Source: Escherichia coli
Lineage (GTDB): Bacteria > Pseudomonadota > Gammaproteobacteria > Enterobacterales > Enterobacteriaceae
DNA length: 64,000 nucleotides
Reading direction: 5' to 3' (one strand)
Assembly: GCF_003334385.1 (NCBI RefSeq)
Contig: NZ_QOWN01000018.1
Part shown: positions 22,326-39,225 of the stretch, piece by piece
How the letters are laid out: each line of letters begins with the position of its first letter
Position numbering within the stretch: position 1 is the stretch's first letter
Notes under the pieces: model-generated
Database searches by the model: none
Seen by the model: the letters and a program-made list of their open reading frames with translations, nothing else
Told to the model about the DNA's origin: nothing
Program-made: the position numbers and the translations under genes

Positions 22326-23294
22326 ATGAAAAAAGAAACTAATGCTTTTATTATGGTAGATAAACGAGTTGCACAATTCCCTAAAACATTAAAGCCAATT
22401 GACCGCTTGGTATATTTCACTATGCTGGATGGTGCTGATTATTACGAATCTAAGTTCGGGAGATATGCACCAAGTATTGACTATTTGATGGTTATGTCTG
22501 GTGCTACACGTAATACAGTTATTGACTCTCTGAAAAGACTTGAGTCACACAGGCTTATTGAGAAGACCAATATCAAAGGGCAGCAAAGTATTTTTAAAGT
22601 ATTCACGTTAGATGAGCGTCCAGAAGTCTTATCAGAACCTACCCTTGATGAGCGTCGTAGAGTCAAATTATCAGGTCAACCAGAATCTGACACTAACCCA
22701 ACCAAAAATTGGTTACCTACCCAACCAGAATTTGGTTACCTACCTAACCAGAAATTGGTTACATGTAATACTGAATATAAAGACAAAAATATAAAAACTA
22801 AAGAAGAAAGACTAAAAGGGAACTTTGAAGAAGAATCTCTTAAGAAGGGAGCTTCGCTCTGTGATTCACATGAATGTGATATTAAAGAAGATGACTTTCT
22901 TTCTTTGGATGAATTAAATGATTTTCTCTCTATGAATGAATCTGACCTTGATAGTGAAGCTACTAAAGAGGTCGTTAAAAAGGAAGATAAAATCTCTGAT
23001 GTGATTGCTAGTAGTGACCATAAAAACACACAGTGCCCCGCCACTGATGATGAGATGGACCCCTTCGATGATGATGAAGAGGATGAAGAGTCAGAACGTG
23101 AAAAAGCCATTAAGAGGGTAGAGAAGAAAAAGAGATTCGAGCTTGCAAGACAAAAGAACAAAGTATCGGGTTTAGACCCATTCGATGACAGTGAAGATGA
23201 TTATTATCTTTCACCGAGAAAGAAACAAACCCAGGATGACAAGAAGCAAAAAATTAAACCGAAGATGTATTTTGCTGGTGGAGGTATGCGCTAA
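22326..23294 (+). CDS. putative replication initiator (winged-helix N-terminal domain, acidic C-terminal tail) with origin-like iterons embedded in its coding sequence
   Basis: 322 aa; N-terminal winged-helix-like region; internal DNA iterons plus AT-rich tract resembling the lambda O/ori arrangement; C-terminus very rich in D/E. Confidence 0.55.
   Translation: MKKETNAFIMVDKRVAQFPKTLKPIDRLVYFTMLDGADYYESKFGRYAPSIDYLMVMSGATRNTVIDSLKRLESHRLIEKTNIKGQQSIFKVFTLDERPEVLSEPTLDERRRVKLSGQPESDTNPTKNWLPTQPEFGYLPNQKLVTCNTEYKDKNIKTKEERLKGNFEEESLKKGASLCDSHECDIKEDDFLSLDELNDFLSMNESDLDSEATKEVVKKEDKISDVIASSDHKNTQCPATDDEMDPFDDDEEDEESEREKAIKRVEKKKRFELARQKNKVSGLDPFDDSEDDYYLSPRKKQTQDDKKQKIKPKMYFAGGGMR
22676..22820. 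repeat. Origin-like iteron array (3-4 direct repeats of about 23 bp, each containing the palindrome AACCARAAWTTGGTT) followed by an AT-rich tract
   Basis: AACCCAACCAAAAATTGGTTACCTAC / CCAACCAGAATTTGGTTACCTAC / CTAACCAGAAATTGGTTACATG at 22695-22765, partial unit at 22677-22693, then AT-rich 22766-22820. Confidence 0.65.
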
Positions 23295-36906: not shown

Positions 36907-37193
36907 CATGGCCCCCTAATTCGTGTTACTAGACAACGTTATTCGAGGTTCAATGCGTTTTTATCTGAAGCAACTTCAGTATACCAATAAGTAAGGGTAT
37001 TCACCGAATTTTTAAAGGGGGAAACAGATAAATTTCTGCTTTTAAGATTTATATGAACAATAAAACAGCATGTCATTCATATTTTTTTAGCATATTGTGC
37101 AATTATTTTGAGGAAGTGTAGAAATTTTGTACTCAAAATTCGTAAGTAAAATAAAAAAGCCGGGGCGACCCGGCAAAAAAAAATCACTGCATA

Positions 37194-37439
37194 TTATTCG
37201 CTGACAAACCAGTCATCGGCGCTTTCCCACGTTTCCTGGAGAATTTCACTAATGCGCTGTTTATCTTCTTTTGTCGCGCCAATAACCGATAAATTATTCG
37301 CTGCGGCATAACGTACCGATACGTGGCCTTCATTATCAGGAAACGCATACTGAATACGGCGGGAAAGTTCGCCAGCCAGGGCGTCAATAGCCCCAGCTGG
37401 CAATGGAGAAGTTTTCGCTATGGTGACTTCAATTCGCAT
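37194..37439 (-). CDS. dinI: DNA damage-inducible protein I
   Basis: 81 aa starting MRIEVTIAKTSPLPAGAIDALAGELSRR (internal start of the 125-aa track ORF). Confidence 0.92.
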   Translation of the reverse strand: MRIEVTIAKTSPLPAGAIDALAGELSRRIQYAFPDNEGHVSVRYAAANNLSVIGATKEDKQRISEILQETWESADDWFVSE

Positions 37440-37458
37440 AATAGCCCCCTGTTGAATA

Positions 37459-37478
37459 TACTGGTTATTTATACAGGT
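37459..37478 (-). promoter_or_regulatory. LexA operator (SOS box) of dinI
   Basis: Minus-strand ACCTGTATAAATAACCAGTA (CTGT-N8-CCAG, near-consensus SOS box) 20 bp upstream of dinI. Confidence 0.8.
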
Positions 37479-37512
37479 AAAATAACCTAATGACAACAGG
37501 AAGCTACGATTT

Positions 37513-38559
37513 TTATTGTTTAACGGACCAGCGTACCGTTTCCCCGGCGAGGAATGGCACCAGCGTGTCATCAGTCAGTGCGATGCTTTCAGCAACCTGT
37601 TGCTCTTCACGTACCAGTTCGATGAATGTGTCGTTGACCGGCAACCCATAGAACTGCGGGCCGTTTACAGAACAGAATGCTTCAAAGTGCTGCAAAGCAT
37701 TCATTTCTTCAAAGACGGTAGCGTAACTGCCCAGCGCGGTTGGGGCGTTGAAGCAGCCCGCGCAGCCGCAACTGCTCTCTTTGCGATGACGTGCATGTGG
37801 CGCAGAATCCGTACCGAGGAATACTCGATTAAAACCGCTGGCGACCAGTTCACGCAATGCCTGTTGGTGAATATTACGTTTGAGGATGGGTAGACAATAC
37901 AGGTGCGGACGCACGCCTCCAACCAGCATATGGTTGCGGTTAAACATCAGATGCTGCGGAGTGATGGTGGCAGCCAGCCGTTCATTTCCGTCACGGACAT
38001 AGTCGGCAGCATCTTTGGTGGTGATGTGCTCAAAAACGACTTTCAGCGCAGTCAGGCGCTGGCGCAGAGGTTCCATCACGCTTTCTATAAAGCGCGCTTC
38101 ACGATCAAAAATGTCGATATCTGCATGTGTCACTTCACCATGCACCAGTAGCGGCATACCGATTTTTTCCATGCGCTCAAGTACCGGCATGATTGCGTCA
38201 ATTGACGTCACGCCGTGGCTGGAGTTAGTGGTTGCGTTTGCCGGGTAAAGTTTTGCAGCGGTGAACACGCCTTCGTTAAATCCGCGCTCCAGCTCATTAG
38301 GATCCAGCGAATCTGTTAAATAACAGGTCATCAATGGGGTGAAATCGTGCCCGGCAGGTACGGCGTCAAGAATACGCTGGCGATACGCCACGGCAGCCTC
38401 AACGGTGGTCACGGGCGGAGCCAGATTGGGCATTACGATAGCCCGTCCATAAATTTCGCTGGTATATGGCACGACAGTTTTTAACATGTCGCCATCGCGG
38501 AGGTGAAGGTGCCAGTCGTCTGGGCGGCGGATCTTTAATACCTGGGATGGTGCAGTCAT
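37513..38559 (-). CDS. pyrC: dihydroorotase
   Basis: 348 aa; [26 protein letters not shown] metal-binding HxH motif. Confidence 0.95.
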
Positions 38560-38664
38560 TAATCTCTATGCTCCGGCTGAAGGGATGTTTTTGCCGGACA
38601 CAAAGGATAAGCGGAAACGTTTTCCTTTGCACGAAAAATAAAGGGCGCGAATGCGCCCTCGTGA

Positions 38665-39225
38665 TTAATCAGTAAATGGAATGACAATTTCGCCTGGCTT
38701 CACTTCAATGCCTTTCGCCAGTTTTTTCGCCATTGCTTCGCCCTGGCTGCCATCTTCGCGCAGGACGTAAGCAGGTTGCTGGTTAAAGTAATTGCGTAAT
38801 GCCTGGTTCAAATAGGGAAGCAACGTTTGCATCACCGTTTGCATTTTTTCCGGTTGTACCGTCGCATCGACCACTTCCATCTCTTTCAGGAAGATCGCAC
38901 CTTTTTCTTTATCAAACACGGGCAGCGCTTTCAGCTTCAGTTTCATGGTCGCTTTCTGACTACCGAACAGGGAGTTCATGTCCAGATTGGCGTCTCCGGT
39001 TAGGGTAACCTTATTCGGCTCTTCGCGACCAATTTGGCTGGTCAGGTTTGTCAGAACAATATGGGCGTCAGCCACGCCGGGTAAACCGATATCTTTTGAG
39101 AAATTATTATGTTTCGCAAGCGACTGGTTAATTTCTTGTTCGGTGATGGTGTATTGGGTGAGTTGATTACAGCCAACGAGCAGGCCACTGACGATCAATG
39201 CAGCGGCAAATAAAAACTTGTTCAT
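38665..39225 (-). CDS. yceB: lipoprotein YceB (DUF1439)
   Basis: Start trimmed to MNKFLFAAALIVSGLLVGC (lipobox), 186 aa. Confidence 0.88.
   Translation of the reverse strand: MNKFLFAAALIVSGLLVGCNQLTQYTITEQEINQSLAKHNNFSKDIGLPGVADAHIVLTNLTSQIGREEPNKVTLTGDANLDMNSLFGSQKATMKLKLKALPVFDKEKGAIFLKEMEVVDATVQPEKMQTVMQTLLPYLNQALRNYFNQQPAYVLREDGSQGEAMAKKLAKGIEVKPGEIVIPFTD

Follow-up and report, generated by a model that had tools for sequence, protein, structure and literature searches.

The LexA operator of Escherichia coli dinI lies within a conserved pyrC-dinI hairpin that may insulate dinI from read-through

The dihydroorotase gene pyrC and the DNA damage-inducible gene dinI of Escherichia coli follow one another on the same strand with a spacer of only 73 nt between them, which raises the question of what this short stretch contains besides the SOS box of dinI and how transcription of the first gene is kept apart from expression of the second. 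The window, the whole stretch of 64,000 nucleotides that was analysed, carries the solA-bssS-dinI-pyrC-yceB-grxB region of E. coli at ~35.4–40 kb, with all genes on the minus strand; adding 1,084,048 to a window coordinate gives the MG1655 coordinate. A 601-bp query centred on the spacer found a match, annotated with dinI and pyrC, in 5,426 of 5,426 complete E. coli genomes, and in 5,159 of the 5,426 the 106 bp around the spacer show an identity of 99% or more. The original prediction, covering 37440–37512 and hence exactly the 73-nt spacer, had described a near-consensus LexA operator placed so that the pyrC terminator region and the dinI promoter are tightly packed. The features needed to examine this description are as follows.

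37513..38559, minus strand: pyrC (dihydroorotase) coding sequence, from the open reading frame and annotation, with the stop codon TAA at 37515->37513.
37440-37512, minus-strand reading: pyrC-dinI spacer of 73 nt, TAA-AAATC-GTAGCTTCCTGTTGTCATTAGGTTATTTTACCTGTATAAATAACCAGTATATTCAACAGGGGGCTATT-ATG.
37459..37478, minus strand (37478->37459): LexA operator (SOS box) ACCTGTATAAATAACCAGTA, from its position weight matrix (PWM) score and the published dinI box.
37194..37439, minus strand: dinI coding sequence for the 81-aa DNA damage-inducible protein I, which modulates RecA, from the open reading frame and annotation (function as summarised in PMC6590174).
37149..37174, minus strand: canonical intrinsic terminator after dinI, GCCGGGTCGCCCCGGC then TTTTTTATTT, from the terminator scan and fold.

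A 125-aa open reading frame over dinI was rejected as an artefact of an in-frame ATG further upstream; the dinI product is 81 aa.

The LexA operator was located at 37478->37459 and is identical to the published dinI box. It is separated from the dinI ATG by 19 nt (37440-37458) and from the pyrC stop by 34 nt (37479-37512), close to the 20 bp and about 35 bp that had been predicted. The description as near-consensus was partly borne out: CTG-N10-CAG is intact and the score is high, but ACCTGTATAAATAACCAGTA agrees with the ideal palindrome TACTGTATATATATACAGTA at only 15 of 20 positions, and the term is generous if taken literally. A search of the window for TACTGTATATATATACAGTA with up to three mismatches returned no matches; it misses the dinI box because the box has five mismatches, and a PWM was used instead. 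The matrix was symmetrised and trained on 17 other E. coli LexA boxes (PMC3009722 Table 4), with dinI excluded. Scored with this matrix, the dinI box reached 20.64 bits and ranked 7th of 18 known boxes, each scored leave-one-out, while the second-best site across the 64-kb window reached 10.74 bits. The best score in 200 dinucleotide shuffles of the window averaged 12.2 and was never above 19.8, so that 0 of 200 shuffles attained 20.64. A PWM scan had been proposed as the check on the operator, with a score below threshold as its refutation; given this outcome, the score did not fall below threshold. A heterology-index-like value computed for the dinI box, 4.95, agrees with the published heterology index (HI) of 4.8.

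That the motif is a chance match lacking operator function is an extremely improbable reading. It could draw on the five departures from the ideal palindrome and on the chance-like frequency of the loose pattern CTGT-N9-CAG in the window (9 observed versus 5.7 expected), a pattern that does not discriminate. The PWM score, however, stands above all other window sites and all shuffles, the box occupies the same position in every orthologue examined, and published lexA-dependent induction (PMC11228462) in effect refutes chance. The site also shares the features of gammaproteobacterial LexA operators, being a 20-bp imperfect palindrome, with CTG and CAG 10 bp apart and an A/T-rich centre, that scores within their range and above background, overlaps the core promoter (at the predicted E. 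coli +1) and is conserved in position. The flagged motif is thus almost certainly the LexA operator of the dinI promoter, acting by the standard mechanism.

This operator is already in the literature. PMC3009722 (Table 4) gives the identical 20-mer as the LexA motif in front of dinI, a UV-induced gene, and dinI is counted among the LexA-regulated genes with a known box (PMC6590174). AZT induces dinI 49-fold with a 39-fold lexA dependence (LexA cleavage), the box having an HI of 4.8 (PMC11228462), and ciprofloxacin likewise induces dinI. In Salmonella dinI a 19-bp interval separates box and ATG, as it does in three Gifsy prophage dinI homologues. In K. pneumoniae, the dinI box overlaps a mapped transcription start site (TSS) and is positive by LexA ChIP, with damage-sensitive occupancy. 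The E. coli site is the same as these published E. coli, Salmonella and Klebsiella dinI operators, and no differences set the operator itself apart. Because the exact 20-mer has been published and dinI induction is known to be lexA-dependent, the finding of the box is not new, and the operator by itself adds nothing to what was known.

The dinI promoter was assigned by eye and by conservation, with the following elements.

37491..37496, minus strand (37496->37491): predicted dinI -35 hexamer TTGTCA, 17 nt from the -10, with a conserved TTG.
37468..37473, minus strand (37473->37468): predicted dinI -10 hexamer TATAAA, inside the LexA box.
~37461 (+/-2), minus strand: predicted dinI +1, inside the LexA box; the mapped Klebsiella TSS overlaps the box.

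A consensus promoter scan misses this promoter because its rule demands T at position 6 of the -10 element, and the hexamer ends in A. LexA bound to the box, which spans both the predicted -10 and the predicted +1, would therefore block RNA polymerase. RecA-stimulated self-cleavage of LexA would then empty the operator, and dinI would be transcribed with a leader of ~20 nt.

The predicted pyrC terminator region was not recovered. A terminator scan of the spacer (37440-37512) returned no terminator-like site, and the same scan readily detects the terminator after dinI. That terminator, a hairpin at 37174->37159 with a T-run after it, is the first one recognisable 3' of pyrC; between pyrC and it the scan found no canonical terminator. 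The RNA 3'-end lists of Adams 2021 contain only a pyrC-internal end at 1,122,569 and none at 11212xx-11215xx, and they are uninformative for the junction because even the dinI terminator is missing there. No entry for the pyrC-dinI junction is present in the TERMITe supplements. An Rfam covariance-model search of 37100-38700 at E <= 1 placed no family in the spacer, its sole match being PyrC_leader at 38560-38609.

The tight packing nonetheless stands in that the dinI promoter lies between pyrC and dinI; its neighbour is an anti-Shine-Dalgarno arm rather than a recognisable terminator. Folding of the minus-strand RNA across the junction gave a hairpin with two arms.

37494..37507, minus strand (37507->37494): hairpin 5' arm GUAGCUUCCUGUUG, with the anti-Shine-Dalgarno CUUCC, from the fold.
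37441..37454, minus strand (37454->37441): hairpin 3' arm CAACAGGGGGCUAU, with the dinI Shine-Dalgarno (SD) GGGGG (37449->37445), from the fold.

The stem has 14 pairs and a G+C-rich base (z = -3.47), and 0 of 200 shuffles gave an equally good fold. Its 5' arm begins 5 nt past the stop codon of pyrC and shares 3 nt with the -35 hexamer, and the 39-nt loop holds the LexA box and the promoter. The 5' arm therefore lies upstream of the predicted +1 (~37461), with the SD falling within the 3' arm, the arm geometry described for bacteriophage T4. G-U pairs make up three of the 14, which restricts the pairing to RNA transcribed in the pyrC/dinI sense. An extended LexA palindrome was ruled out by the asymmetry of the arms about the box, from which they are 15 nt and 4 nt away.

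The two RNAs that would cross or enter this region differ in predicted structure. Folding energy was -31.0 kcal/mol for the read-through spacer RNA versus -7.6 for dinI's own transcript, and the probability that the E. coli SD is unpaired was 0.002 for the read-through RNA, rising to 0.083 for a transcript with its start at 37461. The SD of E. coli's own dinI transcript is thus only modestly open (0.083), and the difference between the long and short RNA in this species is mainly one of stability.

Conservation of the hairpin was examined with a search anchored on the DinI C-terminal motif, by which upstream DNA was not preselected, taking one genome per species. The scan yielded at least 120 stretches across Enterobacterales. 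Among the matches listed, pyrC is directly upstream on the same strand in 85 loci of other species, where the spacer measures 62-143 nt, most commonly 73-75. A LexA box is present in 85 of these 85 listed loci, scoring 18.6-29.5 bits at 14-22 nt (mostly 18-19) from the ATG; among the same matches, E. coli and E. albertii carry weaker versions (21 bits) compared with 24-29 in most other genera. The alignment of these 85 listed sequences shows no variation in CTGTA, CAG and ATG, and T20 and G22 of the -35 TTG are at least 90% conserved.

Pairing of the SD region with sequence 5' of the LexA box was similarly widespread. At least seven SD-region bases pair in this way in the minimum-energy fold in 83 of the 85 pyrC-linked species among the matches listed. 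The pairing is absent in two of the 85 listed loci, one of which, L015, lies outside alignment A1. The arms vary by clade yet stay complementary, as in CCCCCUG/CAGGGGG, CCUCCGG/CCGGAGG, UCUCCA/UGGAGG and GUUACCUU/AAGGUAAC. Over the 85 species among the matches listed, the median accessibility of the SD was 0.001 in read-through RNA versus 0.28 in dinI's own transcript.

The 5' arm is positioned just 5' of the -35 element in Enterobacteriaceae and just 3' of it in Erwiniaceae, Yersiniaceae and Pectobacteriaceae. RNAalifold applied to all 85 listed spacers together found no consensus structure because the 5' arm occupies different columns in different families, and the two layouts were therefore analysed separately. 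In the Enterobacteriaceae layout (44 sequences among the matches listed), 75% of cells were paired versus 34-60% with slid partners, nine core pairs were 89-100% paired, and the covariation score was reached by 16 of 500 shuffles, a modest signal. For the second layout (23 sequences among the matches listed), RNAalifold gave a 7-pair outer helix at -10.8 kcal/mol; 92.5% of cells were paired versus 38-61% with slid partners, a value reached by 4 of 500 shuffles, and the covariation score, again modest, was reached by 9 of 500. An alignment-free swap of partners among the listed loci gave a mean of -18.1 kcal/mol for a locus's own partner versus -13.9 for foreign ones, with 0 of 5,000 permutations as low, shared ancestry inflating these swap and permutation tests. 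The swap result holds within both the GGGGG and the GGAGG SD classes.

Loci in which dinI is not behind pyrC served as the control. These comprised 27 dinI homologues among the matches listed, namely prophage-type copies and the genes of Hafnia, Edwardsiella, Budvicia, Pragia and Photorhabdus. All have the LexA box in the same placement and a G-rich SD, and as a group these 27 listed homologues showed no pairing beyond chance. Among the matches listed, the median z was -0.10 in unlinked versus -2.79 in linked loci (Mann-Whitney p = 3e-10) and the median dG -10.3 versus -19.2; SD accessibility in read-through RNA had a median of 0.35 in the unlinked loci listed. The N-terminus and 5' arm of L072, which is among the few "positives" of the 27, are both of the pyrC-linked type; its upstream sequence spans just 137 nt, and it is probably a pyrC-linked locus cut short.

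These data bear directly on whether the complementarity is a functionless by-product, in which a G-rich SD pairs with any pyrimidine-rich tract near the -35 element and that tract is kept for the promoter or by descent. Such an origin would fit the near-invariance of the SD side and the predominance of one-sided C-to-U changes in the 5' arm, of which there are ~20 compared with 12 pair-breaking changes, a ratio that transition bias alone could give; the modest column covariation and the inflation of permutation tests by shared ancestry point the same way. The 27 listed unlinked homologues, however, have the same G-rich SD and LexA promoter layout without the pairing, and the pairing is retained although some families have the arm 5' of the -35 and others 3' of it. 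Compensatory switches were additionally observed: U-A to C-G at column pair 24-68 of alignment A3 (second layout), GGGAG/CUCCC in L103, and GGUAAC/GUUACC versus GGCAAC/GUUGCC between two Dickeya species (GUUACCUU/AAGGUAAC versus GUUGCC/GGCAAC). A by-product is accordingly judged improbable. The sequence comparisons indicate that the arm pairing is very probably real, conserved and under selection, and tied to the pyrC context rather than to dinI or LexA as such.

An inverted repeat that brackets a regulatory site might instead act as DNA: a dimeric protein could bind it on either side of the LexA box, or the DNA could form a cruciform or a single-strand hairpin. This was considered very unlikely. 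Arm sequences differ across families, with only the complementarity conserved, and the arms lie at varying positions with respect to the -35 and the box; nor are the E. coli arms symmetric about the LexA dyad. Among the matches listed, the sense-strand duplex is stronger in 53 loci and the antisense one in 28, and G-U accounts for 112 of 1,096 pairs (~10%), which fits an RNA of the pyrC/dinI sense.

A more serious competitor to an SD-masking RNA structure is that the hairpin is the pyrC terminator, or a structure protecting the pyrC 3' end, and insulates dinI by stopping transcription. Among the listed loci the stem is found only where dinI follows pyrC, and like a canonical intrinsic terminator it presents a G+C-rich stem directly after a stop codon, starting 5 nt past that of pyrC. 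Another terminator candidate was detected in only 1 of 68 short spacers, compared with 5 of 17 long ones, among the matches listed, and in some Erwiniaceae the stem is followed by the U-rich CUUUUAUG. Unlike a canonical terminator, the E. coli structure has no short-loop hairpin and no U-tract: its 39-nt loop contains the whole promoter, UAUGCGAA stands directly 3' of the 3' arm in the window, and the scan missed it. Five or more U in the 8 nt past the outer helix were found in 0 of 84 hairpins among the matches listed (mode 3), and several tails have no U-run at all, e.g. GGGGGCAACCAUG. Long-spacer species with a separate canonical terminator just after pyrC also retain the stem, which in these species is either redundant or has another role. 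Termination or 3'-end protection is therefore rated as rather unlikely, though it may coexist with insulation at the level of translation.

The reading preferred here is translational insulation, in which pyrC read-through RNA hides the dinI ribosome site; as judged from the sequence evidence, its chances are about even. Because no recognisable terminator precedes dinI, pyrC RNA should run into dinI. The resulting long RNA carries both arms and is predicted to mask the dinI ribosome-binding site. RNA from the LexA-controlled promoter would start between the arms, lack the 5' arm and be translatable. DinI synthesis would then be set by LexA release alone, however strongly pyrC is transcribed. 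More speculatively, Rho might also end the read-through RNA where dinI goes untranslated. Ribosomes that complete pyrC do so only 5 nt before the arm and could briefly open the outer pairs of the stem. Taken as a whole, the statement that the operator is nested in a conserved hairpin, which we infer to act as an insulator, is considered likely.

Comparable arrangements have been described in phage T4, where transcripts of gene e (lysozyme), soc, gene 49 and I-TevI that come from upstream promoters form a helix hiding the Shine-Dalgarno or AUG, while transcripts from a promoter directly upstream of their ribosome-binding site (RBS) are without the 5' strand and well translated (PMC3014915). The predicted geometry at dinI is the same as for gene e and I-TevI, with the 5' arm upstream of the gene's own start and the 3' arm formed by the SD. 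The dinI gene differs in being a cellular, chromosomal gene rather than a phage gene, with upstream transcription from the metabolic gene pyrC, and its internal promoter is of the sigma-70 type under LexA control whereas that of T4 is a late promoter. For dinI the function is deduced by comparing sequences only; that of T4 gene e has been tested by experiment.

Insertion sequences share the logic of RNA pairing that hides an RBS and so guards against a potentially harmful protein being made from a neighbour's transcripts. In IS10 and IS50, fold-back of read-through transcripts hides the RBS, and work by Davis, Simons and Kleckner (Cell, 1985) reportedly described such fold-back as protecting IS10 from outside transcription. 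IS200 has both an end terminator that guards against transcription coming in from outside and a stem that sequesters the SD (PMC4513863). The IS200 stem lies within the gene's own 5' UTR and acts on all transcripts, whereas at dinI both arms occur together only in read-through RNA; and the dinI locus, unlike IS10, IS50 and IS200, is not a mobile element. Neither an anti-SD structure at dinI nor a terminator between pyrC and dinI turned up in a literature search, which, its coverage being incomplete, is weak evidence of novelty; pyrC sequencing papers of the 1980s may note the dyad as a putative terminator.

There is an even prospect that a promoter-nested anti-SD hairpin, shared by at least four Enterobacterales families, silences pyrC read-through, perhaps together with exposure to Rho, and leaves DinI strictly LexA-dependent, as a T4-like cellular device that is maybe general. 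If true, this would be a case of promoter-in-hairpin insulation outside phages and transposons. It suggests a genome-wide search for anti-SD arms upstream of internal promoters at terminator-less same-strand junctions, and it warns annotators that short same-strand spacers need not hold terminators. At high concentration DinI inhibits both the coprotease and the recombinase activities of RecA (review PMC6590174), and pyrC, a regulated metabolic gene that has no LexA box, is itself induced in the damage response (PMC11228462). The strict LexA control of DinI would make sense if a conserved fold keeps read-through RNA silent.

Transcription of pyrC (37513-38559) has been reported to respond to AZT. 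The whole de novo pyrimidine pathway, including pyrC, is induced in a manner that depends on LexA cleavage but in the absence of a LexA box (PMC11228462). The dinI LexA box lies downstream of pyrC and so cannot account for this induction; the LexA-cleavage-dependent induction of pyrC does imply that transcription reaches the pyrC-dinI junction during SOS. A search of 37100-38700 against Rfam returned a single match, which is the known pyrC 5' leader:

38560-38609, minus strand, PyrC_leader (RF02372), immediately 5' of the pyrC start (Rfam score 68.7 bits)

No other Rfam match was obtained in this interval. Using a weight matrix built from 17 other E. coli LexA boxes with dinI left out (LexA-PWM), the runner-up site in the window was located at 22769-22788 (TACTGAATATAAAGACAAAA). 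This site is not a credible LexA operator because its score of 10.7 bits falls under 12.2 bits, the mean best score of shuffled windows.

The dinI comparison, with one genome per species in Enterobacterales, included 11 loci from Photorhabdus, Hafnia, Edwardsiella, Budvicia and Pragia (L002, L011, L035, L040, L044, L068, L069, L075, L019, L081 and L111) in which dinI does not adjoin pyrC. The anti-SD stem, the pairing of a 5' arm after the pyrC stop with the dinI Shine-Dalgarno (SD) sequence, was absent from all 11 of these unlinked loci. The distance from LexA box to ATG was 21-27 nt in the same loci versus 18-19 nt in most pyrC-linked loci, among the loci listed. pyrC-dinI spacers of 90-143 nt were observed among the listed loci of Pectobacterium, Dickeya, Brenneria, Rouxiella and Winslowiella (L027, L037, L061, L062, L109, L116, L118 and other long-spacer loci). 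The listed long spacers carry an extra hairpin immediately 3' of the pyrC stop, classified by the scan rule as a canonical terminator in 5 of the 17 long spacers. Despite this extra hairpin, the anti-SD stem is kept in the long-spacer loci.

Within E. coli, a natural deletion of dinI was identified in ST2747 (L123, NZ_CP007394.1 1818374-1823428), where bssS follows pyrC after ~90 bp and similarity to the window ends within the LexA box. In 6 of 5,426 E. coli genomes, no match reached 80% coverage of the spacer query. Five additional matches to window positions 37425-37700 in the E. coli genome collection were on plasmids, and presumably represent either chromosomal DNA that the plasmids have captured or dinI-like genes of their own.

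When the predicted transcript of dinI (37400-37461, minus strand) is folded, ACUUCUCC in codons 9-13 forms a weak pairing with the SD G-run (-7.6 kcal/mol), and the unpaired probability of the SD in the predicted E. coli mRNA is 0.083. By this prediction, the E. coli dinI ribosome binding site remains partly closed even when carried on the gene's own mRNA. The terminator scan and fold also indicate a short 3' UTR, with ~20 nt between stop codon and terminator stem (window 37149-37196). In K. pneumoniae, the dinI 3' end is processed to DinR, a 157-nt Hfq-dependent sRNA that represses ftsZ (PMC10907235). In contrast, the E. coli dinI 3' end is apparently too short for such an sRNA and seems to leave no room for a DinR-like product.

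The dinI box of E. coli (37459-37478 in the window) and E. albertii (ACCTG..., ~21 bits by LexA-PWM) is among the weakest of the listed Enterobacterales loci (L004-L121), most genera in this set having TACTG or AACTG boxes of 24-29.5 bits. The weaker box may mean leakier or earlier induction of dinI in Escherichia.
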